Notes under the pieces: model-generated
The model's database searches: none
The model's input: only the letters and a program-made list of their open reading frames with translations
What the model was told of the DNA's origin: nothing
DNA from: a virus
Reading direction: 5' to 3' (one strand)
IMG/VR virus record: IMGVR_UViG_3300028197_001695
Coordinates: 1-64,000 of that record
DNA: 64,000 nt
In this document: positions 41,111 to 53,317 of the stretch, piece after piece
Layout of the letters: every line of letters begins with the position of its first letter
Position numbering within the stretch: position 1 is the first letter of the stretch
Position numbers and translations under genes: made by a program

Positions 41111-42026
41111 GAACTTTTTTTTCTAAATGATATTGAACGTCAACGTGCCAAAGACTCTGCCCGTGATATAGTATTTTAGGTATAATCTTCTTCGCCCCCG
41201 CTCTTGAGTAAGCAAAAACAAACTGTATGTTTTCTGGGTAGTCTATCATAAGACTACGGACGTTGTGCCACAAGTAACCTAAGTTCGATTTAAACTTCGA
41301 TACTTTGTTGTCTTCTTCGATTTTCCCAATAGATGACTCGACAACAATGAACATGTAAGAATTAAACTTGACACAACGATCCATTTCACGCCTGAATCTT
41401 TCAATATCTTTTCCGAAAGTTTGTCTAAAATCATCTTGAGCTTTTCTATCTACAAAGGTTTTTGAATAATATTCTCCTGCTGCGGTGTAATCACCGAAGT
41501 CTAACTTGTTCTTCATACTATTATCGAAGTTAAGAGGCTTTTGTTCTCTAGTATCGACAAATATTTGCATATCTTTATTTTCTTGCTCCCAGAAGTTCTT
41601 GGGTAAATTTTTGGTGAACCAAGATTTTATGCCCAAGTCCTCAGAGAACTCAGAGTAAGATGTCCACATTTTTCGATAGTAATCGATGTTAGGCATTTGA
41701 GCCAACATATAGTATAAATCTGGTGGGGTAAACTTAACATCTTTCTTCTCAAACCTTTCGCGGATATATTTGATTAAGTAATTTTTTGCTTTGATAGGAG
41801 AAGTCGTTTTCAGCCAAGATAAATAATTATCTACATTGTTAAAATCTTCTGAGAAGTATTGGTCATAGTTTTTGAACTGTAACAATTCTTTTGTGTAAAG
41901 ATCTCTTTTGGCATAATGCTCCACATAATACTCCCCAATAGAAGTACTATGCGCTTTAAGATGGGCATGGAAGCTTCTGCGATTATCAAAAGGCTTCCCA
42001 CACACTCTGCAAACAAATTCACTCAT
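41073..42026 (-). CDS. C2H2 zinc finger plus ERCC4/XPF-type nuclease
   Basis: CRVCGKPFDNRRSFHAHLKAH; FVDTREQKP...LDFGDY...VDRKAQDDF (ERCC4 DxRE, GDY, (E/D)RKxxxD). Confidence 0.75.
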   Translation of the reverse strand: MSEFVCRVCGKPFDNRRSFHAHLKAHSTSIGEYYVEHYAKRDLYTKELLQFKNYDQYFSEDFNNVDNYLSWLKTTSPIKAKNYLIKYIRERFEKKDVKFTPPDLYYMLAQMPNIDYYRKMWTSYSEFSEDLGIKSWFTKNLPKNFWEQENKDMQIFVDTREQKPLNFDNSMKNKLDFGDYTAAGEYYSKTFVDRKAQDDFRQTFGKDIERFRREMDRCVKFNSYMFIVVESSIGKIEEDNKVSKFKSNLGYLWHNVRSLMIDYPENIQFVFAYSRAGAKKIIPKILYHGQSLWHVDVQYHLEKKVHGMAERKTAVSK

Positions 42027-43081
42027 AATAATTCTTTTTTGGATATCCCCAAGATTCTTGCTTTATAATCGTCCATACTTTCCAATCTGTCAGCTTCTTC
42101 TTCAATTAATTTGTTTTGAAGTTCGGCCATCATGATCATACGGTCTCTTTCTTCTCGTTCTTGGAATGCTTCAACTAAAGCGAAGATAGAACCATTCTCC
42201 TCGCCCTTAGATTTCAATCTCGCAGTTCTAGATCCGTTCAAGTCTTTCGTCAGGGATTCAATGCGCTTCTCGCACTGGTTAAGCTCTTCACTGGTAGCCT
42301 TGATAATCTCCGTCAGACGCATTGTGATGTCCCTTTCGTTGTCTTGGTCGTCCAGTAGTGCATTAAGCTTGTCAATACGCATCTGGATGTGTTTCTGGCG
42401 CACGTAGTTAGCACATACAGTCACATATAGATTCAATTCGTCGTTAGTGAGGTCAGGCTTATCCCAAACAGCACGAACGAACTCGCTTTCGAATAAGTTT
42501 CTGTCAGCTAGAGTCGCATACTGATTAATAAAATGATTGAAGCGAGGGCTTTTAAAATAAAGAATTAATTGCTCTACTAGTTTCTTTTGTTTTGTTTGGA
42601 GGTTTAGTTCCTCTAGACGAGTGCCGCAGAAGTTGTTGATCTTGACAATCGCTCTGTTTATAGATTTAGGTGGAGTCCATTTCTCTTTTGTAACAATTTC
42701 ATTATCGTCTACAATCTCTGGTCTGTAAGTTCTTAAGAAATCAACAATAACCCTATGCTTCATACTCAGGGGCTGAACATCACGATCCTTGAAGGTGAGT
42801 CGAGCAATCTCTAATGCATTCATCCCAACCTCAATATTGTCAGTCATCAAGAACTCTTTTTGTTCTTTGTCCAAATGAATCTGCTCTACTTTCGGGGCAA
42901 GGGATGTTTTTGCTTTTTTATCTTGTTCAGCTAAGAACTTCCTAACTGCACGACCCTGTTTCGATCTCCCATCAATATCTTCGTCATTAAATATCTTTCG
43001 GGTTATATACATTAAGTCAGGGTTCTTTTTAAACAGTTTTAAAATCTGCTCTTTCTGCTCTTCTGTTAAATCGTATATCAT
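42023..43081 (-). CDS. Hypothetical protein, possible terminase small subunit
   Basis: Two HTH-like N-terminal repeats (LTEEQKEQI, LDKEQKEFL) and coiled-coil C-terminus, two genes upstream of terL. Confidence 0.35.
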   Translation of the reverse strand: MIYDLTEEQKEQILKLFKKNPDLMYITRKIFNDEDIDGRSKQGRAVRKFLAEQDKKAKTSLAPKVEQIHLDKEQKEFLMTDNIEVGMNALEIARLTFKDRDVQPLSMKHRVIVDFLRTYRPEIVDDNEIVTKEKWTPPKSINRAIVKINNFCGTRLEELNLQTKQKKLVEQLILYFKSPRFNHFINQYATLADRNLFESEFVRAVWDKPDLTNDELNLYVTVCANYVRQKHIQMRIDKLNALLDDQDNERDITMRLTEIIKATSEELNQCEKRIESLTKDLNGSRTARLKSKGEENGSIFALVEAFQEREERDRMIMMAELQNKLIEEEADRLESMDDYKARILGISKKELL

Positions 43082-43755
43082 TATATATCTTCCTCTTTTA
43101 CTAGCTTAGCTGCTATATTATAAAACTTCTTCTTCAGGTTATTTATTTGTTTGTATCTAGGTGTCTTTCTTTTACTTGTATCTCTCTTGAACCCAAACTT
43201 ATTAGCAACCTCTACTTCATCTACATGATCTATAAACAAAAGCTTGTATATCTCTTTATGCTTTTCGTTTAACTGACCCATAACCAAAAGATGTATCTTC
43301 ATCGATTTCTTATCATAATCTAATTCATCTTCGTTTATCCTGTCTTTAACAGAGATTAAAGAATCTAAAGAGACTGGCATCTTTAAATTAAATGCATTTT
43401 GTTTTTTGCTTTTCCATTTCATGAAGTCATCACACTCTTCATCCTGCTCTTTACTCTTAGTAAAACCACACTCATCACCTCCTAAATAAAAAGAACACCG
43501 CAAACATGGTTTAGCAAAGTTCCCATAATGATTCCTTATCAGATTTTTTATCTGATTACTAATCAACATAGAAGCCCAAGGCTTAAACGCTCTCTTCTGG
43601 TCCCACAAATGCCACTTTTTATAGATATGGATACGGATTATTTGAGACACATCGTCATAATCCAACCAAGCTATGGAATTAAGCTGCCACTTAGCCCTAT
43701 ATCTACTTAAAAGTTCTTCAATTTCTTGGACAAGGTCTTCGTAACTTTTATCCAT
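43081..43755 (-). CDS. ECF-like sigma factor with Cys-rich insertion (start moved to ATG 43755)
   Basis: DYDDVSQIIRIHIYKKWHLWD...FKPWASMLISNQIKNLIR (region 2); PCLRC...C...C; LNEKHKEIYKLLF...EVANKFG (region 4). Confidence 0.6.
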   Translation of the reverse strand: MDKSYEDLVQEIEELLSRYRAKWQLNSIAWLDYDDVSQIIRIHIYKKWHLWDQKRAFKPWASMLISNQIKNLIRNHYGNFAKPCLRCSFYLGGDECGFTKSKEQDEECDDFMKWKSKKQNAFNLKMPVSLDSLISVKDRINEDELDYDKKSMKIHLLVMGQLNEKHKEIYKLLFIDHVDEVEVANKFGFKRDTSKRKTPRYKQINNLKKKFYNIAAKLVKEEDI

Positions 43756-44122
43756 CAATATCTTGGACTCTTGATGAAGCGCAATCTGCTTGACTTTGTT
43801 TGAGCATATCCTCTCCATTAGGTAGATTTGATGCTCGTCTAGAAGTCTTATCTCTATTAGCGTCTTCAGGAGTCGCAGACTTCCAAAGATCAGTTAAGGT
43901 TGTTTGTTGCGAGTTAGCCTCTGCGATAATATCATTCTTCATTTTGTTCAAATCAAAGGAGCGAGGACTTTCTTCCTCACGTTCAATTTCAGCAACAGCT
44001 TCTTCGCGAGCTGGCGCAGGAGCAGCCGATCCAATCGTCGTACCACACGACGAACAAAACTTGGGTTTAGTCACCTCGTACACGTTTTTGTGGCCGCAGG
44101 AAGAACAGAAAACTTTATTCAT
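43748..44122 (-). CDS. Double zinc-ribbon protein
   Basis: FCSSCGHK...FCSSCGTT. Confidence 0.7.
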   Translation of the reverse strand: MNKVFCSSCGHKNVYEVTKPKFCSSCGTTIGSAAPAPAREEAVAEIEREEESPRSFDLNKMKNDIIAEANSQQTTLTDLWKSATPEDANRDKTSRRASNLPNGEDMLKQSQADCASSRVQDIDG

Positions 44123-44130
44123 ATCAAATT

Positions 44131-44805
44131 TTATTGATTTTGGGCTAATAATTCAATTTTTTCTACAAGATAACTGATAATTTTATCTCTTATCACATCT
44201 TCTTTCCCAAATTCTACACTATACACCCCTTTTTTGGAACTCTGCTCGTCTTCAAACAAAGACTTAAGCCTATCAAAACCACTATTCCTAATATCACTCT
44301 GCAAACTATCCCCACACACAAACAACTTACTGCCACGACCTATCCTTGTAAGCACTGTAGTCAATTCTCTCACACTCATATTCTGAGCCTCATCCACAAT
44401 AACCACTTTCTCCCTCCAAGTACATCCGCGCAAAAAGTTTATCGGTTCCGCTTCTAGTACCTTTTTATTTTTTAATTGCTCTTTCTCTGGCTTATTTAAT
44501 AACTCATCAATCTTATCTAAAAGCGGAGCCATATATGGCCCAAACTTATCATCGATGTCTCCTTTCAGAAAACCTATCCCCCTATCCGCACTCTCCACAA
44601 CACTACGCAAATACAATATTTTTAAGTTTTTGTCATTATTATACAAATCTAACGCAGAATAAACAGAAAGAAATGTCTTAGCTGTCCCCGCTGGACCCCC
44701 AACAAACACAATCCTTGTTTTATCATCAGTCATGATGTCATAGAATTCCTTTTGTTTCTTTGTCAATTCAATATGACCCAACAATAAGCTATTATCTTTT
44801 GCCAT
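44131..44805 (-). CDS. phoH: PhoH-family ATPase
   Basis: GPAGTAKT, GFLKGDIDDKFGPY, FLRGCT, IVDEAQN, TRIG, GDSLQSD. Confidence 0.92.
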   Translation of the reverse strand: MAKDNSLLLGHIELTKKQKEFYDIMTDDKTRIVFVGGPAGTAKTFLSVYSALDLYNNDKNLKILYLRSVVESADRGIGFLKGDIDDKFGPYMAPLLDKIDELLNKPEKEQLKNKKVLEAEPINFLRGCTWREKVVIVDEAQNMSVRELTTVLTRIGRGSKLFVCGDSLQSDIRNSGFDRLKSLFEDEQSSKKGVYSVEFGKEDVIRDKIISYLVEKIELLAQNQ

Positions 44806-45023: not shown

Positions 45024-45029
45024 ATGCCC

Positions 45030-45281
45030 ATGAAAGAAATTACCTCAATCACCACCAAGTCAGTCCAAGATCTAGAAATCAGTGATGATATGCATGACAC
45101 GGTTGAAATGGGATATATGGAAGCAGATAAGTGTTTCTACTACTGCGAATTCTCTCACAAAGGAAAGTCTTACGAGGGAGTCATTGAAGCAGTTAGGGTT
45201 TGGGACGAAGGTTCTGAATGCGCTTTCGTAGAATGGGAAGGCGATACCATTAATAACGTCGAAGAAATCGCTTGCGCTTAA
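45030..45281 (+). CDS. Small acidic early protein (start moved to ATG 45030)
   Basis: ORF track frame; second ATG fits promoter geometry. Confidence 0.65.
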   Translation: MKEITSITTKSVQDLEISDDMHDTVEMGYMEADKCFYYCEFSHKGKSYEGVIEAVRVWDEGSECAFVEWEGDTINNVEEIACA

Positions 45282-45300
45282 TTCTTTTTTCTAGTATACT
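45272..45300 (+). promoter_or_regulatory. Sigma70-type early promoter, leaderless
   Basis: TTGCGC-17-TATACT; ATG 45307 after a 6-nt gap. Confidence 0.7.
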
Positions 45301-45306
45301 ATGCTC

Positions 45307-45510
45307 ATGACAAAGATCACCTATGGCGAAGTTAAAGACTCAATAGAGTTTGGAGAAGTAGTTGAGCAAGATGGTTGCTGGGCTACTCACTTGGTAGCTT
45401 TCACCTATGAGGGTAAAGAATATACTGGTGCTATACAGTCAGACCCAGAACTGAACGGCAAAATCTATGATGACGAGGCTATCGAATACCCTGAAATTAA
45501 TTCAAAATAA
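45307..45510 (+). CDS. Small acidic early protein, possible paralogue of 45030-45281
   Basis: Shares F..EGKEYTGAI vs FSHKGKSYEGVI with its neighbour. Confidence 0.65.
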   Translation: MTKITYGEVKDSIEFGEVVEQDGCWATHLVAFTYEGKEYTGAIQSDPELNGKIYDDEAIEYPEINSK

Positions 45511-45523
45511 TAGCAAAGAAAGC

Positions 45524-45552
45524 TTGCACCACTCAGAAAAATAAAGTAAACT
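45524..45552 (+). promoter_or_regulatory. Sigma70-type early promoter, leaderless
   Basis: TTGCAC-17-TAAACT; ATG 45559 after a 6-nt gap. Confidence 0.7.
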
Positions 45553-45558
45553 CCTCAC

Positions 45559-45885
45559 ATGACCGCGACACAAGAAGCACTAGCAGCAATGGCCAAAGCA
45601 GAGCAAGGCATGAATAGCATGATCGATGACATCGTTAAATCTTCAGAAACTTTCACGCAGGATTGCAAGGAGCAGAAGGAGAAACTTTCTGACGCTCCAG
45701 CCTTTGAGCAAGCGCAAGAGAGAGCGCATGAAAACTTTGAGAACTTCATGCAGGAGAGACAAGCAGGGAGAGACTTGGATTACGTAGTGTCGGAAGCCAT
45801 CTGGCTCCTTCAGAAGACTGACCCTTTCCTAGCCAAGCACCTAAACAAAGCTCTAGGAAAATACAGAAATAATCGCGTAAAGTAA
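45559..45885 (+). CDS. Hypothetical helical early protein
   Basis: 108-aa ORF with dedicated promoter. Confidence 0.7.
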   Translation: MTATQEALAAMAKAEQGMNSMIDDIVKSSETFTQDCKEQKEKLSDAPAFEQAQERAHENFENFMQERQAGRDLDYVVSEAIWLLQKTDPFLAKHLNKALGKYRNNRVK

Positions 45886-45895
45886 CAAATAAAGC

Positions 45896-45924
45896 TTGTA
45901 GCCAACCCAAAAATAAAGTAAAAT
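45896..45924 (+). promoter_or_regulatory. Sigma70-type early promoter
   Basis: TTGTAG-17-TAAAAT; ATG 45934 after a 9-nt gap (ACTCTCGTT). Confidence 0.65.
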
Positions 45925-45933
45925 ACTCTCGTT

Positions 45934-46278
45934 ATGAAAAACACCACTACCACTACCACTACCCGCTTCGATCACGCCCTCTATGGCCTTGGAGAACAAG
46001 CATTAAAGCGCAAGCTTACCAATCGCGTTGTGACTTACCTCAATGAAGGCGAGTCTACAGTTAAGGCTGACGGGGAGCGTCAGTTAGTAATCCAAAAAGA
46101 TTTTGTGGATGGCTTTGCCAAAGGTACGGGTCGTCGCTACATCCAAGGATATGTTGCAGACCTCGACGATGGGGGTAAGATCAAGCCCCGCACCCTGCAC
46201 GTTGCAGGGATCAGCGAAGTGAAAGGTCGCTTGGCCACCGCTTGGGCCTTGGCCATGTCAGTCTATAAGAAAATCTAG
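45934..46278 (+). CDS. Hypothetical early protein
   Basis: 114-aa ORF with own promoter and terminator. Confidence 0.7.
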   Translation: MKNTTTTTTTRFDHALYGLGEQALKRKLTNRVVTYLNEGESTVKADGERQLVIQKDFVDGFAKGTGRRYIQGYVADLDDGGKIKPRTLHVAGISEVKGRLATAWALAMSVYKKI

Positions 46279-46298
46279 TTTCTGTGTGTGTGTTATTG

Positions 46299-46336
46299 GC
46301 CCGTCAGTCTCTGCGGAGGCTGGCGGGTTTTCTTTT
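46299..46336 (+). terminator. Rho-independent terminator
   Basis: GCCCGTCAGTCTC-TGCG-GAGGCTGGCGGGT followed by TTTCTTTT. Confidence 0.8.
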
Positions 46337-46446
46337 GCGGCTGGTCCCTTAGGATGAGGGTGTCACCTCATCTTAAAATAAAAAATAAAAGTGTCAAGCG
46401 TTTTACCTAAAAAAAAGTGAAATAAAATAATTAAAAAAAAGCCTCC

Positions 46447-46521
46447 TAAGTCGTTGAGTCTCAAGGAGTTAGGACGACGCGCCCCGCCCCCGCCCGTAAC
46501 TCGTTGAATACAAGTGAGTTA
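46447..46521. repeat. 75-bp double-palindrome element, copy 1
   Basis: TAAGTCGTTGAGTCTCAAGGAGTTA / GGACGACGCGCCCCGCCCCCGCCCG / TAACTCGTTGAATACAAGTGAGTTA (25+25+25). Confidence 0.85.
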
Positions 46522-46627
46522 CAAAGGTTTTTTCTATACCATAATCGCGAGGCAATGCAAGCATTAAAACAAAAAAATAAACCTGTCTGACAACTTAAAA
46601 AAAAATCATTTAATATGCAAAAAGAGC

Positions 46628-46656
46628 TTTTAATACACTCTAATCTGTGCTAAAAT
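46628..46656 (+). promoter_or_regulatory. Extended -10 early promoter, leaderless
   Basis: TTTTAA-17-(TGn)TAAAAT; ATG 46663 after a 6-nt gap. Confidence 0.6.
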
Positions 46657-46662
46657 ACACGC

Positions 46663-46938
46663 ATGACAACGAACAAAGAACACCAGTCAGCAAACTACAA
46701 TAGCAGCGTAACTTGGGATGATGGCCGCACAGTTAAATTCAACGAATACTTTGAGGTCGAGGGCTTCACCAAAGTCCTTTCTGTTTCTCCTTCTGAATAC
46801 TCTATAGAAGAAAACCTTAAGCAGCGCAAGGCTTTAGGCGGTGGCAATTCTTATGGCTACCGTTACAAGTCTATGCAGAGAGAAGAGTGGTATGTAGACT
46901 TCGAGGCAAAAGCTTTCTGGTCTTCTGACAACTGCTAA
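46663..46938 (+). CDS. Hypothetical early protein
   Basis: 91-aa ORF with own promoter. Confidence 0.7.
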   Translation: MTTNKEHQSANYNSSVTWDDGRTVKFNEYFEVEGFTKVLSVSPSEYSIEENLKQRKALGGGNSYGYRYKSMQREEWYVDFEAKAFWSSDNC

Positions 46939-46958
46939 AAAAAAAGAATAAAAAACCC

Positions 46959-46987
46959 TTGCACAGAATTAAAAAATAAACTATACT
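46959..46987 (+). promoter_or_regulatory. Sigma70-type early promoter, leaderless
   Basis: TTGCAC-17-TATACT; ATG 46994 after a 6-nt gap. Confidence 0.75.
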
Positions 46988-46993
46988 TCCCAC

Positions 46994-47185
46994 ATGACCA
47001 AGACAAACACCACCGAACGAACCGACCTAGCGAGATTCTTCAAAGAGCGCAACGCAGCAAGCGATATGCGTTTAGAGATCTCCTATCTCACTGGCCTTGC
47101 AAAATACGATAACCCTGAGATCTCAGAGAGACTTGAGAAGATTCTCGAAAAACATGACCAAGAGAGAGAACAGAACTGGCTTTAA
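46994..47185 (+). CDS. Hypothetical early protein
   Basis: 63-aa ORF with own promoter. Confidence 0.7.
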   Translation: MTKTNTTERTDLARFFKERNAASDMRLEISYLTGLAKYDNPEISERLEKILEKHDQEREQNWL

Positions 47186-47218
47186 TTCACCCGCACCCAA
47201 ACACTAACAAAAAAAATT

Positions 47219-47554
47219 ATGAATCACCGTTTAAACTACCTAAAAAACTTCGTTTCCATCGTAATGGTCACTCATCTTGCTGTGCTCGCCATCTTCGGCT
47301 TGTTGGCATACTTCGTTGGCTTACCTCAAGCCATTGACAACATAGGAGGATGGTATGAAACAAAAGCGAATGGAGAGGTATACTATCATGCGTATAACTT
47401 CCTTCACTTCATGGCTCTCACTTACCTCCCTGCTATGGTGCTGGCTCCTTGCATCACTGTAATCGACTGGATCAATGACGCACCCGCAAGACGCAAGCTC
47501 AAGCGCACACCTAACACAATCACAGGAAAAGAATTAGTTGACATAAAACTCTAA
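47219..47554 (+). CDS. Hypothetical membrane protein, two hydrophobic segments
   Basis: FVSIVMVTHLAVLAIFGLLAYFVGL and FLHFMALTYLPAMVLAPCITVI. Confidence 0.7.
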   Translation: MNHRLNYLKNFVSIVMVTHLAVLAIFGLLAYFVGLPQAIDNIGGWYETKANGEVYYHAYNFLHFMALTYLPAMVLAPCITVIDWINDAPARRKLKRTPNTITGKELVDIKL

Positions 47555-47562
47555 AATAATCT

Positions 47563-47590
47563 TTGCAATAAACTCAAAATACACTATACT
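47563..47590 (+). promoter_or_regulatory. Sigma70-type early promoter, leaderless
   Basis: TTGCAA-16-TATACT; ATG 47597 after a 6-nt gap. Confidence 0.7.
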
Positions 47591-47596
47591 AACATC

Positions 47597-47950
47597 ATGA
47601 CCGTTAAGAAACCAGCATTCATCTACTCCGTAATTGTTAAAGCCCTCAAAGACTGTCGCTTGAGAGAAGATCACGCCAAATTAGAAGATCCATCAATTGA
47701 CAACTACACTGAAGCTGTAATCATTGATATGTGCAGGGCAGCAGTTGATAATAATCGCGACATCCGTGACTTTCGCGCAGTGTGCGAGGAAACACTAAAG
47801 GTGATCCTCCGCTTGCGTAGAGATTCAATACCAATGATCGGACCGACTTGTCATAATAATCTCGTCAAGGAAGGTCTCATGATCGAAAGCGATGATCTTG
47901 AGTCGCGCCCCAAGGAGATGCTTGGCGCAGCATTCACTAAAAATAATTAA
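47597..47950 (+). CDS. Hypothetical early protein
   Basis: 117-aa ORF with own promoter. Confidence 0.7.
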   Translation: MTVKKPAFIYSVIVKALKDCRLREDHAKLEDPSIDNYTEAVIIDMCRAAVDNNRDIRDFRAVCEETLKVILRLRRDSIPMIGPTCHNNLVKEGLMIESDDLESRPKEMLGAAFTKNN

Positions 47951-47969
47951 AAAAACATTTAAAAAGGGC

Positions 47970-47998
47970 TTGCATCTAATTCTTTTCTGGAGTATACT
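47970..47998 (+). promoter_or_regulatory. Sigma70-type early promoter, leaderless
   Basis: TTGCAT-17-TATACT; ATG 48005 after a 6-nt gap. Confidence 0.75.
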
Positions 47999-48004
47999 AT
48001 CGGC

Positions 48005-48238
48005 ATGGCAACAATAACAGCAGACCAGTTAGCACTATTCGGATATGAAGCGGCCCTCAGAGGAGATGAGAGCGCGACTTGTCCAACCTCTTACCTTGGG
48101 TATGTAATCCCAGACGTATTCCCCGACGGGGAATCAGCTCAGGCAGTTTGGCGGGTAGCCTACCGTGATGGCGTAGAGTGTCGCGCAACCTACGAGGTAG
48201 AAGGCAGACAAGACGCAGCGCGAGACTGGCAAGACTAG
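48005..48238 (+). CDS. Hypothetical early protein
   Basis: 77-aa ORF with own promoter and downstream terminator. Confidence 0.7.
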   Translation: MATITADQLALFGYEAALRGDESATCPTSYLGYVIPDVFPDGESAQAVWRVAYRDGVECRATYEVEGRQDAARDWQD

Positions 48239-48261
48239 CCGCTTCCCGCACTCCCCGCAAG

Positions 48262-48286
48262 GCTCCCGAAAGGGAGCTTTTTTTTT
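48262..48286 (+). terminator. Rho-independent terminator
   Basis: GCTCCC-GAAA-GGGAGC followed by T9. Confidence 0.85.
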
Positions 48287-48345
48287 GCTTTTGTGCCTTT
48301 TTTAGCTTTACATCCCGAAAAAATCATTTTTAAATAAAAACGTTG

Positions 48346-48420
48346 TAACTCGTTGAGTATCAAGGGGTTAGGGGCCGCGCCCCCGCCGCGCCCCGTAAGT
48401 CGTTGTTAATCAGTGACTTA
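48346..48420. repeat. 75-bp double-palindrome element, copy 2
   Basis: TAACTCGTTGAGTATCAAGGGGTTA / GGGGCCGCGCCCCCGCCGCGCCCCG / TAAGTCGTTGTTAATCAGTGACTTA. Confidence 0.85.
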
Positions 48421-48439
48421 GAGCGTTTTTGATGAACTT

Positions 48440-48464
48440 TAACTCATTGAGTACCAGTGGCTTA
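48440..48464. repeat. Solo 25-bp palindrome of the same family
   Basis: TAACTCATTGAGTACCAGTGGCTTA. Confidence 0.65.
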
Positions 48465-48469
48465 TCTCT

Positions 48470-48497
48470 TATAGATCTGGGCCTATAGATCTGGGCC
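48470..48497 (+). repeat. Tandem 14-bp direct repeat
   Basis: TATAGATCTGGGCC x2. Confidence 0.8.
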
Positions 48498-48641
48498 TAT
48501 ATATTTGGCTTATTTGCTTTTAACCTTAGTGACCTTAGTGCATTATTTGCTTAAATATCTGGCGATGTTTGTCAAGTTTATTTGCAAAAATATTTGGCAT
48601 TGTTGGCCCAAAAAAAAATCACTTTAAACGCAAAAAAGGTA

Positions 48642-48670
48642 TTGCGCTTCATAAAAAAATACTTTAGACT
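48642..48670 (+). promoter_or_regulatory. Sigma70-type promoter with a leader, for the DUF932-like gene
   Basis: TTGCGC-17-TAGACT; ATG at 48726. Confidence 0.6.
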
Positions 48671-48725
48671 CTCACCAGTTCAGAGGCAGTTCTCTGACAA
48701 TAACCAACTAGAAACTACTACTACC

Positions 48726-49523
48726 ATGAAAAACCTAATCTACTCATCCAATAAAGTCAGCTATGATCAACTCAAAGAAGTTGAAAAGCCTGAGCCTATG
48801 GGTTCGCGTCACTTCCCAATCGACCATCACGAGTTGGTCGATATCGCGAAGCGCGAATTACGAGGCGCAGGTTTTGAGGTCGTGCAAGAGGAGCACGGAC
48901 TTTCCGAGAAAGGTATGAATTGCTTTTCTGGTTTTGCTATCCGCAAGGAAGACATTGAGAACAAAGACCGCGAGCTTGTCTTCGGTCTTCGGAACTCTCA
49001 CAATCAAAAGTTCGCTAGTTCTGTGGCGGTTGGCTCTTCGATGCTTGTTTGCGAGAATCTTTGCTTCTCTTCTGACATTACCCTGTCACGCAAGCACACC
49101 CGCAACATTTTTCAGGATCTCCCTCTCGTTATGGGTGAGGCGATTGGGTCTATTCAAAAGACTTGGAAAAATGAAGGTAAGCGCATCGAGACTTACAAAA
49201 ATACCCAAGCTGATGAGATCGAGGTAATCAATCAGCTAATCAAAGCTGGCTTGATCAAGCCCACCAAGATTGAAAAATTCTTGGATCTTGTTCAGAATGG
49301 CGGGGTCGATGTCAACGGCACAAAGGGAGCCTTCCACGAACATCGCGGAACACTCTGGAACATCTTCAACGCTGTTACAGAATCCTACAAGGATTTGACT
49401 GCTAACAATGTCATGCACCTCCCACGCATGACAATGCAGACTCAAAGTATTCTTGACAGGGTCGCAAGCCCCTCTTTAATTACTGCGGAAGATAAAAATT
49501 CAGCCCTAGTGCTTTCTGCTTAA
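48726..49523 (+). CDS. DUF932-like protein (start moved to ATG 48726)
   Basis: RHFPIDH, VFGLRNSHNQ...AVG..MLVCENL...RKHT pattern of DUF932/DUF945 proteins. Confidence 0.65.
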   Translation: MKNLIYSSNKVSYDQLKEVEKPEPMGSRHFPIDHHELVDIAKRELRGAGFEVVQEEHGLSEKGMNCFSGFAIRKEDIENKDRELVFGLRNSHNQKFASSVAVGSSMLVCENLCFSSDITLSRKHTRNIFQDLPLVMGEAIGSIQKTWKNEGKRIETYKNTQADEIEVINQLIKAGLIKPTKIEKFLDLVQNGGVDVNGTKGAFHEHRGTLWNIFNAVTESYKDLTANNVMHLPRMTMQTQSILDRVASPSLITAEDKNSALVLSA

Positions 49524-49541
49524 ATTTCCTTGACATAGCAA

Positions 49542-49580
49542 GCCCCGTCCCCTCTGCATGGGGGGCGGGGTTTTTCTTTT
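49542..49580 (+). terminator. Rho-independent terminator
   Basis: GCCCCGTCCCC...GGGGGGCGGGGT followed by TTTTCTTTT. Confidence 0.75.
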
Positions 49581-49602
49581 GTCAATAATAAAAAAAACGC
49601 TC

Positions 49603-49677
49603 TAAGTCGTTGAGTATCAATGAGTTAGGGGCCAGCCCCCCGCCGCGCCCCGTAACTCCTTATCAATCAGTGACTTA
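49603..49677. repeat. 75-bp double-palindrome element, copy 3
   Basis: TAAGTCGTTGAGTATCAATGAGTTA / GGGGCCAGCCCCCCGCCGCGCCCCG / TAACTCCTTATCAATCAGTGACTTA. Confidence 0.85.
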
Positions 49678-49789
49678 CGACGATTGTTTCCATATCACAA
49701 AAAACTAAGAGTGCAAGCGCAAATTAAAATAATAAAAAACATTAAAAAAGCCTTGTCTCGCATAAAAATCCTGTCACAATACTTTCGTT

Positions 49790-50140
49790 ATGGGATTAGA
49801 TCAAAATGCATATAGACAGGACTCCAACGGGGAAGATGTAGAACTCGCCACTTGGAGAAAGCACAACGCCTTGCAAGGCTGGATGGAAAAACTCTGGACT
49901 CTCAAAACGGGAAAGCCAGCAAATGAATTGAATTGTGAGGTCATGCAATTGACTGCGGAGGATTTAGAAAGTCTGTGGGCAGTGGTTAAAGCTGACGATT
50001 TGCCAGTAACGCAAGGTTTCTTTTTCGGTGCTGATAGCAGTCAGGATGAAACAAGGAAAGAAAAGGATCTTCGGTTTGTTGATGATGCTCTAAAGGCCAT
50101 TGATGATGGGGAAAAAGTTTTTTATTCTTGCTGGTGGTAA
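49790..50140 (+). CDS. Hypothetical phage protein
   Basis: MGLDQNAY...WRKHNALQGWM; upstream TTGTCT-16-CACAAT-ACTTTCGTT-ATG mirrors the 45934 leader. Confidence 0.7.
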   Translation: MGLDQNAYRQDSNGEDVELATWRKHNALQGWMEKLWTLKTGKPANELNCEVMQLTAEDLESLWAVVKADDLPVTQGFFFGADSSQDETRKEKDLRFVDDALKAIDDGEKVFYSCWW

Positions 50141-50164
50141 ATCTTTACCCAATAATTAAACACT

Positions 50165-50869
50165 ATGAAATTACTTAATCAAGGCAATGCCAAAACACTC
50201 AAGGGAGAAAAGGTTGGATTCCGCACGTTCGGTCTCCACCTTTCCCCTGCTACTAAATCAGGATACAACGTCTGCCAATGGGCAAGCGCGGGATGTCGTG
50301 CCGCTTGTTTAGATACAGCGGGGCGCGGTTGTATGTCCAACGTGCAAAATTCTAGAATCGCTAAAACTCAAAGGTTCTTCAAAGATAACTTTGGCTTCAT
50401 GTCGGATCTTCGAATTGAAATCGGTAAGGCTATCAAAAGCGCGGCAAGAAAAAGTCTTACTCCTTGTTTTCGTCTTAACCTTACAAGCGATATCCCTTGG
50501 GAGAATATGAAAAAGGGCGGTAAGACAAGTGTGATTGAAGAGTTCCCAAATGTGAATTTCTACGATTACACTAAAGGGTTTTATAGAATGAGGGCTTGGC
50601 TTGATGGCAAAATGCCTGACAACTACCATCTTACCTTTTCTCGCAGTGAGGAGACTAGTGATAACAAAATGAAAACAATCCTTGAGTTAGGAGGCAACGT
50701 CGCCGTTGTCTTCCGTGGTTCACTTCCTAAAACTTATCTTGGCTTTCCCGTCGTCGATGGTGACGAGAATGATCTGCGCTTCAAAGATAAAAAGGGCGTG
50801 ATCGTTGGATTGGTCGAGAAAGGTCTTGCAAAGAAAGACGAAACAGGTTTTGTTGTGGAGCCAAAATGA
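50165..50869 (+). CDS. Gp88-like phage protein with Cys cluster
   Basis: LHLSPA...NVCQWASAGCRAACL..AGRG; FRLNLTSDI; FYDYTK; NYHLTFS; DGDENDLRF. Confidence 0.6.
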   Translation: MKLLNQGNAKTLKGEKVGFRTFGLHLSPATKSGYNVCQWASAGCRAACLDTAGRGCMSNVQNSRIAKTQRFFKDNFGFMSDLRIEIGKAIKSAARKSLTPCFRLNLTSDIPWENMKKGGKTSVIEEFPNVNFYDYTKGFYRMRAWLDGKMPDNYHLTFSRSEETSDNKMKTILELGGNVAVVFRGSLPKTYLGFPVVDGDENDLRFKDKKGVIVGLVEKGLAKKDETGFVVEPK

Positions 50870-50940
50870 TCAAAGGAGAATTAGAAACAGCGATAGTGCT
50901 TATAATGACGATTCTCGCCCTAATATTCAAAAAAAGATAA
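50866..50940 (+). CDS. 24-aa single-pass membrane micropeptide (not in ORF track)
   Basis: MIKGELETAIVLIMTILALIFKKR*; ATGA overlap with upstream stop; next ATG 1 nt after its stop. Confidence 0.55.
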   Translation: MIKGELETAIVLIMTILALIFKKR

Positions 50941-50941
50941 A

Positions 50942-51163
50942 ATGCAGCAAAAAAACATTACTTACAGTGGAATGCCCGACAAGGCATATCGGGAAATCGT
51001 AAAGCAAGCGACAGGCTCAGGCCATTGCAACGTTTACCCAAAGAGGTTATCAAACCAAGTAAGCGAAGCTTGCGATGATTTCTTTAAGTCGAGGAATATA
51101 AAATATGGTTCCTCTTGGTTTCATAAACAAGCAGATAGGAAACAAGAACAAGCAAAAAGATGA
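50942..51163 (+). CDS. Hypothetical protein
   Basis: Tightly packed operon ORF. Confidence 0.6.
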   Translation: MQQKNITYSGMPDKAYREIVKQATGSGHCNVYPKRLSNQVSEACDDFFKSRNIKYGSSWFHKQADRKQEQAKR

Positions 51164-51402
51164 ACCAAACACCAACAGTTAAATTGACAGGAGTATTCCC
51201 TAAAACATTTAGAGCAACTAAGTGTGAGACGGGGAGAGCAGATTGCAACTTTGAATATACTGACGAAAAGAAACAAGTTTTCTTTGAAGTGTGCTTACAT
51301 GGAGCGGTTTCACTGCATGAACATTTCACAGAGCTAGGTTATACAGAATTGGCCCCAAAATTAGAATTCCCAACTTGGCATCCTAACTACAAAAAAAGCT
51401 AA
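51160..51402 (+). CDS. Hypothetical protein
   Basis: ATGA-coupled ORF. Confidence 0.6.
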   Translation: MNQTPTVKLTGVFPKTFRATKCETGRADCNFEYTDEKKQVFFEVCLHGAVSLHEHFTELGYTELAPKLEFPTWHPNYKKS

Positions 51403-51406
51403 AACT

Positions 51407-51589
51407 ATGACAATAGAGGTAGAAAGAAAAGAAGTTTACGGTAATACCCTAACTTATGTAAAAAAAGAATCTGTCAGGAATTCTATAAAGAAACTAACAG
51501 GAAGAAAAACTTTAACTCACTATGACATTGAGGCTCTAAAAGAGTTGGGCTTTATCTTAGTCATTGAACAAGTAACAGAAAGAATTTAA
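51407..51589 (+). CDS. Hypothetical protein
   Basis: Tightly packed operon ORF. Confidence 0.6.
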   Translation: MTIEVERKEVYGNTLTYVKKESVRNSIKKLTGRKTLTHYDIEALKELGFILVIEQVTERI

Positions 51590-51592
51590 ATT

Positions 51593-51883
51593 ATGATTAA
51601 AGAACACACAATGCCGTGCATCCACATGAATGGATCGGGCGAAGATAGTCTACGCAGACAATACAATGAATTGTTTTGCGCTGTAAGCGACGCTCAAGTC
51701 AAACTCCTTTATGATACAGACTTCCATGAGAGAGATTACTACCCTCTTGGGGATGAAGCTTGGGATAAAGCTTATCAAGAAAGAGAAGAAGTGAAGGAAG
51801 CCATGAACAAGGTTTACCAGTATGTCAAGCAGCATATGCACTTTCTCGACTATGGAAAGGAGCCGTTGCCAGATGAAAGTTAA
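51593..51883 (+). CDS. Hypothetical protein
   Basis: PCIHMNGSG...DFHERDYYP; ends 12 bp before element copy 4. Confidence 0.65.
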   Translation: MIKEHTMPCIHMNGSGEDSLRRQYNELFCAVSDAQVKLLYDTDFHERDYYPLGDEAWDKAYQEREEVKEAMNKVYQYVKQHMHFLDYGKEPLPDES

Positions 51884-51895
51884 ATAAAATGCTCC

Positions 51896-51970
51896 TAACT
51901 CGTTGACTATCAGCGAGTTAGAGGGCCGCGCCCCGCCGCGCCTCCTAAGTCCTTACTAATCAGTGGGTTA
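51896..51970. repeat. 75-bp double-palindrome element, copy 4
   Basis: TAACTCGTTGACTATCAGCGAGTTA / GAGGGCCGCGCCCCGCCGCGCCTCC / TAAGTCCTTACTAATCAGTGGGTTA. Confidence 0.85.
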
Positions 51971-52115
51971 CAGTGCTTTTTTTCAATCCCTTTCACTTGC
52001 TGATAATTAGTTAGTTGTGTAATCGGGTTTTGTTTATTTGTTGCTCACCAAAAAAACGGGCATCTGAGGCTTGCTTTTATTTGCTTATATTTGGAATAAA
52101 ATTCGACATCTTTGC

Positions 52116-52143
52116 TTGCTTTATTACTATACACTACTATAAT
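52116..52143 (+). promoter_or_regulatory. Sigma70-type promoter, leaderless
   Basis: TTGCTT-16-TATAAT; ATG 52150 after a 6-nt gap. Confidence 0.6.
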
Positions 52144-52149
52144 GAACAC

Positions 52150-52266
52150 ATGAGAGATCGAGAACGCGCTTTCTTTGAGAATGTAGTATTTACCTGCTTA
52201 GTTTTATTAAGTTGTATTATTTCAACCTTCGGGGTTTACAAATTTTTTGGTTTATTTGTTAACTGA
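52150..52266 (+). CDS. 38-aa membrane micropeptide (start moved from 52015)
   Basis: MRDRERAFFENVVFTCLVLLSCIISTFGVYKFFGLFVN*. Confidence 0.55.
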   Translation: MRDRERAFFENVVFTCLVLLSCIISTFGVYKFFGLFVN

Positions 52267-52286
52267 TCTTGCTGACATAACATAAT

Positions 52287-52328
52287 ACCCGTCCTCCTTT
52301 TTTTGGTTTCTAAGGGGGGCGGGTTCTT
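52287..52328 (+). terminator. Terminator-like hairpin between convergent micropeptide genes
   Basis: ACCCGTCCTCCTT...AAGGGGGGCGGGT followed by TCTTT. Confidence 0.6.
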
Positions 52329-52419
52329 TATTTGGCACTTATTTAGCCCAAAATCCTACAACCTTGGGGCTTATTATTTAGAATAATATTTGGCAAACTT
52401 GCCTCTTCTAGCAGTTAGC

Positions 52420-52515
52420 TCATGTATGACCACAGCCAATTAAACAAAGAATAATCAGTATTCCACTACAAGCTACTAGCCCCAAAAGTACCAATTTATT
52501 TATTTTATGTTGCAT
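52420..52515 (-). CDS. 31-aa hydrophobic micropeptide with lipobox-like motifs (not in ORF track)
   Basis: MQHKINKLVLLGLVACSGILIILCLIGCGHT*; GTGTA motif 10 nt upstream. Confidence 0.5.
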   Translation of the reverse strand: MQHKINKLVLLGLVACSGILIILCLIGCGHT

Positions 52516-52525
52516 GCAATAATAT

Positions 52526-52530
52526 TACAC
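52526..52530 (-). promoter_or_regulatory. GTGTA candidate late-promoter motif
   Basis: GTGTA-ATATTATTGC-ATG. Confidence 0.45.
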
Positions 52531-52542
52531 AGTAAGCGGGGC

Positions 52543-52731
52543 TTATTTGTTTTTATTCTTTTTTGCCTGTAGCTTCTTTATCTTACTATAGAATTTTCCT
52601 TTATTTGAGTTATCAACCATGCAGTCTCCAAAGGGTTGCTTATTATTTAATCCAAATATTTCTCTTAGCCTCTCTGTTTGTGCCTCATCTAGATTTACAT
52701 CGAATTTATTTTGTTCGCTATCTTCTTGCAT
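52543..52731 (-). CDS. Hypothetical charged protein
   Basis: 62-aa ORF with protein-like composition. Confidence 0.5.
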   Translation of the reverse strand: MQEDSEQNKFDVNLDEAQTERLREIFGLNNKQPFGDCMVDNSNKGKFYSKIKKLQAKKNKNK

Positions 52732-52780
52732 ATAGTATTATATAAAAAGCAGCAGGGCGGGGCTATTGTTATTTGAAAAA

Positions 52781-52830
52781 ATATTTGGTAACCTTCTGCA
52801 ACCTTTGGTAACCTTTTGCAACCTTTTGGT
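52781..52830 (+). repeat. 10-bp period tandem repeats (iteron-like)
   Basis: ATATTTGGTA ACCTTCTGCA ACCTTTGGTA ACCTTTTGCA ACCTTTTGGT. Confidence 0.75.
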
Positions 52831-52837
52831 ATCGCGC

Positions 52838-52865
52838 TTGACATTACTAGCTTATTTGCTATGAT
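52838..52865 (+). promoter_or_regulatory. Near-consensus promoter with no convincing downstream ORF
   Basis: TTGACA-16-(TGn)TATGAT directly after the 10-bp repeats. Confidence 0.55.
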
Positions 52866-53317
52866 GTAACCAAATTGTGCTTGGTTTGGGGCCAGCTTTT
52901 ATTTGCTTTTATTTGCTTAAAGTTACAGAAACGGGCTTTTATTTGGTTTTTTTTAGAAAAATAGGTGTTTGCTTTGTGTCTGACTAGGGTAAAATATTAC
53001 TTATTATAAAAAAATATTACAAGCGGGGCTAGTTTTATAAAATTTTGTTTGCTCAGAGGCCATTTGGGTTGCTTTTGTTTGTTTTTGTTGGCTATTCGGG
53101 GGCAAAATATACCAAGCTTACCATTATTTATTATTTAGAGCAACAGCCACTATCCTATTATCCATTCCTATATCCATTAATATCTGGTATAACCCTTATT
53201 TTATCTTGTTTTCTTATTGTATTTGTATTATGTATTACTCTATGTATTACCTTGTGGTATACTGTATAAAAAGGAATAAAAACTAAGGTATAAATAAAAA
53301 GAATAAATTATTATAAT

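Follow-up and report, generated by a model that had tools for sequence, protein, structure and literature searches.

Background

Several families of dispersed intergenic repeats offer points of comparison for the four 75-bp double-palindrome units described here, which lie between positions 46,447 and 51,970 of a 64,000-nucleotide stretch of viral DNA (IMG/VR record IMGVR_UViG_3300028197_001695, positions 1 to 64,000; we refer to this whole stretch as the window). Bacterial interspersed mosaic elements (BIMEs) of enterobacteria, which contain repetitive extragenic palindromic (REP) sequences, have been linked to binding of integration host factor (IHF) and gyrase, to termination, to mRNA stability and to topological insulation, and the L linker of BIME-1 has an IHF site (PMC3333891). 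Like REP/BIME-1 (repetitive IHF-binding palindromic, RIP) elements, the units are intergenic mosaics of palindromes which are mostly paired, are joined by linkers of set length and favour the 3' ends of transcription units. The two differ in composition: in BIMEs, GC-rich REP palindromes flank an AT-rich IHF linker, whereas in the units IHF-like palindromes flank a GC-rich linker. The palindromic arms of the units are AT-rich, start with TAA[C/G]TC and lack the GTAG tag of REP sequences; no cognate RAYT/Y1 gene (PF01797) was found in the 118-kb record from which the window is taken, which is 89% complete; and the unit family is phage-borne, occupies one genome region and has no sequence similarity to REP/BIME elements.

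Among phages, the closest parallel is found in the promoter early stem-loop (PeSL) elements of T4-type phages, which consist of a strong sigma-70 promoter and a terminator stem-loop, and which coincide with indels, replacements and re-ordering of cassettes and are associated with mini-circles (PMC2839356, PMC4122927). PeSLs resemble the units in being short, conserved repeats between the small early ORFans of a hyperplastic region, and in both cases indels and re-ordering of cassettes occur at the repeats. The unit differs in that it sits between a separate terminator and a separate promoter, has no conserved promoter of its own and usually lacks a T-run. A preliminary description of the units had likened them to PeSL cassettes; given the synteny breaks reported below the analogy with PeSL shuffling is a fair one, but the unit itself is neither promoter nor terminator.

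A third comparison is with the stoperators of L5-like (cluster A) mycobacteriophages, single asymmetric 13-bp sites which occur genome-wide, are oriented with transcription and are bound by the temperate phage's own repressor. Stoperators and units alike are many copies of one protein-binding site, predicted in the case of the units, in short intergenic gaps between phage transcription units; they differ in that stoperators are single, asymmetric and genome-wide, whereas the units are paired palindromes in one region. We found no earlier description of the present family of intergenic boundary elements, which we therefore regard as undescribed. By our own rating, the units represent dispersed intergenic protein-binding palindromes at transcription-unit borders, a kind of element that is already known.

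Four units and a lone arm in the window

Each unit comprises a 25-bp left arm, a 25-bp GC spacer and a 25-bp right arm, and all four are on the + strand. Unit 1 occupies 46447-46521 (left arm 46447-46471, spacer 46472-46496, right arm 46497-46521; nhmmer E = 2.6e-23), unit 2 occupies 48346-48420 (48346-48370, 48371-48395 and 48396-48420; E = 1.1e-23), unit 3 occupies 49603-49677 (49603-49627, 49628-49652 and 49653-49677; E = 5e-24) and unit 4 occupies 51896-51970 (51896-51920, 51921-51945 and 51946-51970; E = 3.9e-20). The positions and lengths given in the preliminary description are thus exact, and the spacers it called nearly pure G/C have 92-100% G+C in a genome of about 37% G+C. All four copies that it listed are present, but it overlooked a lone third arm (the ninth in total) at 48440-48464 (+), recovered by both pattern and nhmmer, which starts 44 bp after the start of the unit 2 right arm. 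An AT-rich gap separates this arm from unit 2, and the triplet layout is repeated in relatives. The arm pattern has 15 matches in the window, compared with 0.27 expected from shuffled sequence. Across the 118-kb record, the four units (nhmmer E from 1e-20 to 1e-24) and the lone arm are the sole matches by pattern and nhmmer, the next best nhmmer arm match having an E-value of 6.7.

The units split a block of small + strand cassettes (45024-51883), which includes a DUF932 gene (48726-49523) and a GP88 gene (50165-50869) and which diverges from a - strand block encoding PhoH, a sigma-like protein, a nuclease and TerL. Three of the units follow intrinsic terminators on the + strand, located at 46298-46329 (of the cassette upstream of unit 1), 48259-48280 (upstream of unit 2) and 49540-49573 (upstream of unit 3). 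Unit 4 has no separate terminator and starts 12 nt past the stop codon at 51881-51883, so the placement originally reported holds for all four.

A unit family in a lineage of marine phages

A scan of IMG/VR for the arm-spacer-arm skeleton returned at least 120 loci on at least 103 distinct contigs, many of them 85-148 kb in length, as would be expected from the suggestion that the units are conserved in related phages. The fetched loci contain 287 double units, from which 264 non-identical units were used to assess conservation. No real match was found among GenBank phages with either a 6.5-kb query or a single unit, and a scan of 185,579 species genomes yielded only three matching stretches, all on phage-like contigs of metagenome-assembled genomes (MAGs); a single Verrucomicrobiales MAG accounts for two of them and a Flavobacteriaceae MAG for the third. 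Each stretch bears homologues of genes of the window phage. As the units are confined to phage-like contigs, they are not a host repeat.

The lineage appears to consist of large (85-148 kb) marine siphovirus-like phages, and its hosts are probably Verrucomicrobiales. The window phage looks like a siphovirus in having a tape-measure protein and TerL; it also encodes PhoH, its own sigma-like protein and an ERCC4-type nuclease, and DNA nearly identical to it is present in marine runs from at least 13 studies. In a complete relative of 147.7 kb (G001), units are clustered at 24.1-27.0 kb and 140.3-143.0 kb, amid cassettes of the DUF932/GP88 type. This relative also has two diverged DUF932-GP88 modules about 125 kb apart (L131 269-2399 and L132 10993-12728), only one of which is bracketed by units.

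Conservation and folding of the arms

The arm consensus is TAA[C/G]TC[G/A][T/C]TGA-NNN-TCA[A/G][C/G]GA[G/C]TTA, usually preceded by a G and followed by C-G, and the palindrome reaches about 29 bp once the flanking C-G is counted. A2, A3, T9, A17, T23 and T24 of each arm are 99-100% conserved among the 264 non-identical units. Position 4 is C in 55% of units and G in 42%, so that AAC is not conserved; A or T is very rare at positions 4 and 22, where C and G can stand in either order.

Of the arm pairs, 288 are spaced 50 bp apart, 11 are at 51 bp (loci L035 and L043), two at 49 bp (L097) and five at 53 bp (the diverged locus L126), a count which is biased, as loci were fetched with a 50-bp pattern, with further copies in the same loci being free to differ. 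The lengths first described as invariant are so within this genome but not across the family. Third arms stand 43-44 bp off, across AT-rich gaps. Some relatives have four-arm runs with spacings of 34, 51 and 35 bp (L035 2972-3116), roughly those of adjacent 35-bp footprints of DNABII proteins. The units of L126 (IMGVR_UViG_3300034102_000815) have arms of the form TAAGTCYTT-N7-AAGGACTTA and 28-bp spacers at the 53-bp distance, and this locus helps to decide which arm bases matter.

Each strand of the unit folds better than shuffled sequence (z from -2.6 to -4.4), which is because the arms are palindromes. It had been proposed that a copy folds into one hairpin of about 95 nt or into two small hairpins; the folds do beat shuffles, but covariation lends no support to selection for pairing. 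Among the 264 units, Watson-Crick pairing is found at positions 4/22 in 57% (51% expected from independent columns), at 7/19 in 39% (35% expected) and at 8/18 in 52% (59% expected), where the C-G combination is depleted. Pairing of the left with the right arm in a long hairpin covaries no better than the local hairpins. In 114 units oriented by their genes, 72.9% of cells are paired, against 70.7% in shuffles, and in the sense orientation positions 4/22 are unpaired in 40 of the 114 left arms and 65 of the 114 right arms. We conclude that the arms are probably read as double-stranded DNA by a dimeric protein rather than selected as hairpins, because the variable mirror positions do not co-vary so as to keep pairs. 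Positions 4 and 22, which are restricted to C or G and yet often unpaired, are typical of duplex reading, for example in the minor groove, and not of a selected stem. The conservation pattern fits another of the suggestions made at the outset, that the palindromes are paired operators 50 bp apart.

The same data bear on other proposals. Folded attC-like substrates receive no support, as C and G occur at position 4 in similar shares and there is no pairing covariation; integron attC sites have conserved RYYYAAC and GTTRRRY ends, are recognised by their structure with its extrahelical bases and go with an IntI tyrosine recombinase, and membership of this class was rejected on the above grounds and for want of a PF00589 match in the record. 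Nor does a repeated structured non-coding RNA, which had also been put forward, fit the absence of compensatory covariation in local and long hairpins alike, the lack of a conserved inward promoter or the flipping of the spacer at orthologous sites; an Rfam scan of the window found two tRNAs and nothing at the units. A hairpin within the spacer was rejected, its folding energy being no better than that of shuffled spacers (z = -0.16), and the dyad symmetry of the spacer is weak (6.5 versus 4.8 of 12 pairs). A G-quadruplex or i-motif in the spacer was set aside, since at least three runs of three or more C occur in just 48 of the 264 spacers.

Similarity to IHF sites and a candidate reader

In an IHF site, WATCAA starts near the centre and is followed after 4 bp by TTR, and the prolines that kink the DNA intercalate at two ApA steps separated by 9 bp (PMC1874591). 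Positions 8-25 of the arm follow the register of the lambda H' site: TTG, five bases, CAA, four bases and TTR. The right half of the arm is the IHF consensus WATCAR-N4-TTR and the left half its mirror image; the same pattern recovers the lambda attP sites H1, H2 and H', the last of which reads TTG-N5-CAA-N4-TTG. We found an exact IHF consensus in at least one arm of 228 of the 264 units, compared with one per 5 kb elsewhere in the same loci. T8T9 and A17A18 provide flexible steps 9 bp apart, symmetric about position 13. The arms therefore share with IHF sites the register of conserved bases, a dyad at the central W and the separation of the flexible steps, and the palindrome of about 29 bp falls within the 34-35 bp footprint. 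They differ from IHF sites in that the consensus is symmetrised on both halves, an extra TC/GA is conserved in each half, and the sites are paired in phase at a distance of 50 bp, across a GC-rich spacer.

No HU/IHF gene (PF00216) was found in the 118-kb record or in the complete relative G001, and the Verrucomicrobiales MAG with unit-bearing phage-like contigs has two DNABII genes. Because the phages encode no HU/IHF protein, the leading candidate for a reader of the arms is a DNABII protein of the host. Other searches offered no competitor: the cassette proteins have no DNA-binding Pfam or PHROG domain, the search of PDB sequences for candidate readers was empty, ESM Atlas gave no match, and the literature on DUF932 was uninformative on this point. 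To our knowledge, the box spacings of FNR, Fur, LexA, ParB and KorB do not fit the arm.

We tentatively favour a reading in which a stiff GC spacer keeps two sites for a bending protein (of DNABII type) in phase, and in which the unit would serve as a boundary element and, secondarily, as a joint for shuffling; we consider this plausible rather than probable. The unit would be a polar 75-bp module of two predicted protein-binding palindromes, the centres of which would be kept about 50 bp apart by the stiff 25-bp spacer of about 90% G+C. Each arm, in its sequence and geometry a symmetrised IHF site, could be bound as double-stranded DNA by a dimeric DNA-bending protein, and a host DNABII protein would be available as soon as phage DNA enters the cell. 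With a dimer on each arm, the DNA would be bent sharply twice, in phase, wherever two early transcription units meet; the bends would follow the upstream gene or its terminator, would precede the next leaderless start by 60 bp or more, and may act as an architectural or topological insulator and possibly as a roadblock. Because the copies are alike, they would also recombine with one another, so that they would become homogenised within a genome and provide joints for the gain, loss and re-ordering of cassettes.

This proposal needs to be interpreted cautiously, as a number of observations weigh against it. T5, C6, G20 and A21 are 90-97% conserved but fall in the N4 that the IHF consensus leaves unspecified, and the reader therefore needs more than canonical IHF. 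The L126 lineage retains the outer nine bases and the TT/AA steps and loses the inner ATCAA core. The consensus itself derives from E. coli, and the host is not a proteobacterium; the two DNABII proteins of the Verrucomicrobiales MAG score far below the IHF equivalog cut-offs, and in that 6.5-Mb MAG the palindrome is limited to two phage-like contigs and is thus not an ordinary host motif. The unit is also polar, its left and right arms agreeing at variable positions in 54% when compared directly and in 37% when mirrored; in units where both arms have the exact IHF consensus, the two are in tandem in 78 and mirrored in 13. Where the strand bias of the spacer is clear, C is concentrated on the sense strand in 92 of 134 units (69%), which a purely symmetric DNA site would not predict. 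Finally, roughly a third of the units adjoin a stop codon with no terminator in between, so that some units must be transcribed, and a metatranscriptome contig (51607-51943) runs from gene g51593 into the spacer of unit 4.

A possible but unlikely alternative is that the arms are operators for a sequence-specific dimer encoded by the phage, an early repressor or roadblock acting much as at stoperators, which would silence the early cassettes, or separate them, at a later stage of infection; their likeness to IHF sites would then be coincidental. The evidence for reading of double-stranded DNA suits both explanations equally, and the conserved T5C6/G20A21 and the L126 variant, which exceed the IHF consensus, speak for such a protein, as do the restriction of the motif to this phage lineage and its absence from the host-like chromosome; spacers specific to each genome could likewise fit a genome-specific protein. 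On the other hand, no candidate is evident among the cassette proteins, for the reason already given, and g45934 (45934-46278, +), the most conserved neighbour of the units, is modelled as a WYL/Sm-like barrel without a helix-turn-helix. The spacing of the half-sites is that of a wrapped DNABII site and not the 10-bp dyad typical of helix-turn-helix proteins. Moreover, the arms are about 74-77% identical across phages whose shared proteins are 40-60% identical, a degree of conservation amid divergent proteins that fits a slowly evolving host reader better.

Genomic position and transcription

The units are almost entirely intergenic, 285 of the 287 falling outside long ORFs (open reading frames). 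With gap classes defined by homologue-supported genes, 138 units are in co-directional, 26 in convergent and 14 in divergent gaps, and units are present in 40%, 49% and 21%, respectively, of such gaps of at least 100 bp. About one third start no more than 20 bp past a stop codon, and some provide the stop codon themselves. Most often the next start codon is 60-100 bp away, far enough for a leaderless mRNA to have its promoter in between. The promoters themselves are located 45-130 bp outside the unit, and no inward promoter at a set distance is conserved among 251 units, on which ground a role of the unit as a small antisense RNA was rejected.

A run of at least four T follows 37% of co-directional units (33% where a stop codon immediately precedes the unit), and only one of 43 stop-proximal units has a terminator-like end; the idea that the unit is a general intrinsic terminator was rejected for these reasons. 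In some single copies, as in L110 at 9257, the outer stem and T-run could terminate. Among units at a distance from the stop codon, 41 of 95 have a separate terminator in front.

These positions could also be understood if the units acted as RNA in the 3' untranslated region (UTR) of the upstream cassette, whether as a stabiliser, a factor-dependent terminator or an RNase III-type site, for which REP hairpins and the early R sites of T7 are models. We rate this as quite improbable. The closeness of a third of the units to a stop codon, the enrichment at gene 3' ends and depletion in divergent gaps, the better-than-shuffled folding of both strands, the bias of the C-rich strand to the sense strand and the RNA contig that reaches into unit 4 all argue in its favour, and so does one pair in the sense-oriented right arms, which is U-G in 35 of 114 and mismatched in only five. 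Yet compensatory covariation is missing from the local and long hairpins, 35-57% of units are mismatched at 4/22, and the strict invariance of primary sequence would be unusual for an element selected purely for structure. The scarcity of T-runs (33-37%) and of terminator-like ends (none or one of the 43 stop-proximal units) is also unfavourable, as are the strong terminators ahead of three of the four window copies, the inversion of the spacer at orthologous sites and the absence of a matching Rfam family.

Contigs from one marine metatranscriptome run (X14) match the window at 99-100% identity within 45988-51943 and cover g45934, g48005, DUF932, g50942 and g51593. This suggests that the cassettes are expressed in the sea, DNA carry-over being an alternative. 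Units 1-3 are not covered by these RNA contigs, the coverage of which is merely 2-6x and which were available as contigs only.

Cassette turnover and exchange of sequence between copies

We compared the conservation of neighbouring genes across gaps of different kinds. The neighbour is conserved in 58% of comparisons across short gaps, in 40% across gaps of 60-149 bp and in 13% across gaps with a unit, in keeping with the expectation that gene content changes at the borders of the elements; across long gaps without a unit it is conserved in 11%, a class confounded by unannotated genes. Cassette modules bordered by units also change places between relatives: in L038, g51160-g51593 comes before g49790-GP88 and every border has a unit, whereas the window has these two modules fused and in the opposite order. 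Six blastn alignments (to L017, L038, L065, L106, L110 and L125) start at 49593-49603, and eight alignments to relatives end at 48420-48430. Cassette turnover is concentrated at the borders that units mark, although it is not restricted to the inside of the units.

Copies within a genome resemble one another more than their counterparts elsewhere. Arm identity is 80-82% among copies at the same locus and 76-77% at orthologous positions elsewhere, and spacer identity is 69% and 53%, respectively. At orthologous sites, neither the orientation nor the type of the arms changes, but the spacer may be rich in C or in G depending on the phage. Strain contigs of the window phage have a different, G-rich spacer at unit 2 and differ exactly in the spacer. 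The likeness within genomes, together with this difference between strains, indicates that unit copies exchange sequence within genomes. One strain variant lacks 46338-47978, that is, unit 1 and four genes, and the ends of this deletion are at a terminator and a promoter, not in a unit. A joint of 46463 to 52000 on opposite strands, seen in one run, was uninterpretable.

These results raise the possibility that the units are mainly recombination sites which move promoter-gene cassettes, as analogues of PeSL or attC, with protein binding serving synapsis or strand exchange. The synteny breaks at units and the permuted module of L038 are what such sites would produce; alignments that start or end at unit edges, the concerted evolution of units within genomes, spacers flipped at orthologous sites between unmoved arms and the strain difference at unit 2 point the same way, and the shuffling and mini-circles of PeSLs in T4-type phages are a precedent. 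Nevertheless, we regard this as quite unlikely. The expected enzymes are missing: there is no tyrosine recombinase (PF00589), serine recombinase or Y1/HUH (PF01797) gene in the record. Tyrosine recombinases use an overlap of 6-8 bp and serine recombinases one of 2 bp, neither of which would seem compatible with an odd 25-bp dyad centred on 3 bp. The sole clean strain indel (46338-47978) ends outside the units, long gaps that are free of units break synteny equally often (11%), and any dispersed repeat can give rise to shuffling as a by-product.

A tRNA-like 3' half, with T-arm, acceptor end and CCA, lies just upstream of a unit in another locus (L021 2865-2960), within an insertion of 406 bp relative to L106, L017 and L065.

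It is very improbable, in our view, that the units are selfish miniature mobile elements of the MITE (miniature inverted-repeat transposable element), REPIN or Correia type, transposing within and between phage genomes. They have the look of such elements, being repeated, compact, bounded by inverted repeats and of fixed size; same-genome copies are alike, and BIME-1 and Correia elements carry IHF sites too. However, none of 14 gene pairs with presence/absence differences differs by the unit alone, and direct flanking repeats were not seen in them; these observations speak against a unit that transposes as a miniature mobile repeat, and the polymorphisms are always larger blocks than 75 bp. 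There is no target-site duplication, the immediate flanks being inverted rather than direct repeats, and the record lacks genes for a transposase or a RAYT protein. Orthologous positions retain position-specific arms across distant relatives, and the units are restricted to one genome region.

The contrasting behaviour of arms and spacers allows one further, more speculative idea, which we consider decidedly improbable: that the unit is a two-part address in a boundary-and-exchange system, the arms being a universal landing pad for a host bending protein and the genome-specific GC spacer being read by a phage-specific factor. If true, this would explain why spacers are homogenised within genomes, and even flipped, while arms remain position-specific. 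Such a system would both insulate the early cassettes and direct frequent, register-keeping recombination between copies, and would amount to a recombinase-free, phage-borne counterpart of integron cassette arrays.

Neighbouring genes and non-coding regions

Next to the element block, the - strand has several conserved genes, which encode a PhoH-like ATPase (44131-44805), a zinc-ribbon protein (43748-44122), a likely phage sigma factor with sigma-70 region 2 (43081-43818) and, adjoining TerL, an ERCC4-type nuclease with an N-terminal C2H2 finger (41073-42026). On the + strand, g45934 encodes the small cassette protein found most commonly beside units (32-34 loci). Its model consists of a helix and a beta-barrel (pLDDT 82) with no helix-turn-helix, and shows weak similarity to the WYL/Sm-like domains of BrxR, CapW and DriD (E = 0.04, TM = 0.35). 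A role in early anti-defence is conceivable for this protein.

A second repeat family, WTATTTGSY (ATATTTGGC, TTATTTGCT), has 22 matches in the window, compared with 8.3 expected. Twelve of the 22 are on the + strand in the non-coding stretches 48465-48620 and 52000-53300, the first of which lies upstream of DUF932, a place where this stretch is conserved in L097 and L110. These repeats could be origin iterons or operators. The region 51971-53317 (about 1.35 kb), which separates the + strand cassettes from the - strand genes that come next, has no convincing ORF, several terminator-like hairpins and one strong promoter-like site (52838-52865). An origin or several small RNAs could be located here, and the region recalls the repeat-rich non-coding region beside the pre-early genes of T5.

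Implications

Regardless of mechanism, the units are a practical marker that delimits exchangeable cassettes and with which module shuffling and concerted evolution can be charted in uncultivated phages, and they tag a phage lineage whose hosts resist cultivation. If the proposed boundary role is true, early transcription units throughout a lineage of abundant marine phages would be set apart by strong, paired sites at which an architectural protein of the host can bind, and the lineage would clearly exemplify the viral use of DNA bending by a nucleoid protein as genome punctuation. The units would then also provide a handle on how transcription is insulated in phages with leaderless early mRNAs, and a sequence signature for the specificity of the DNABII proteins of Verrucomicrobia.

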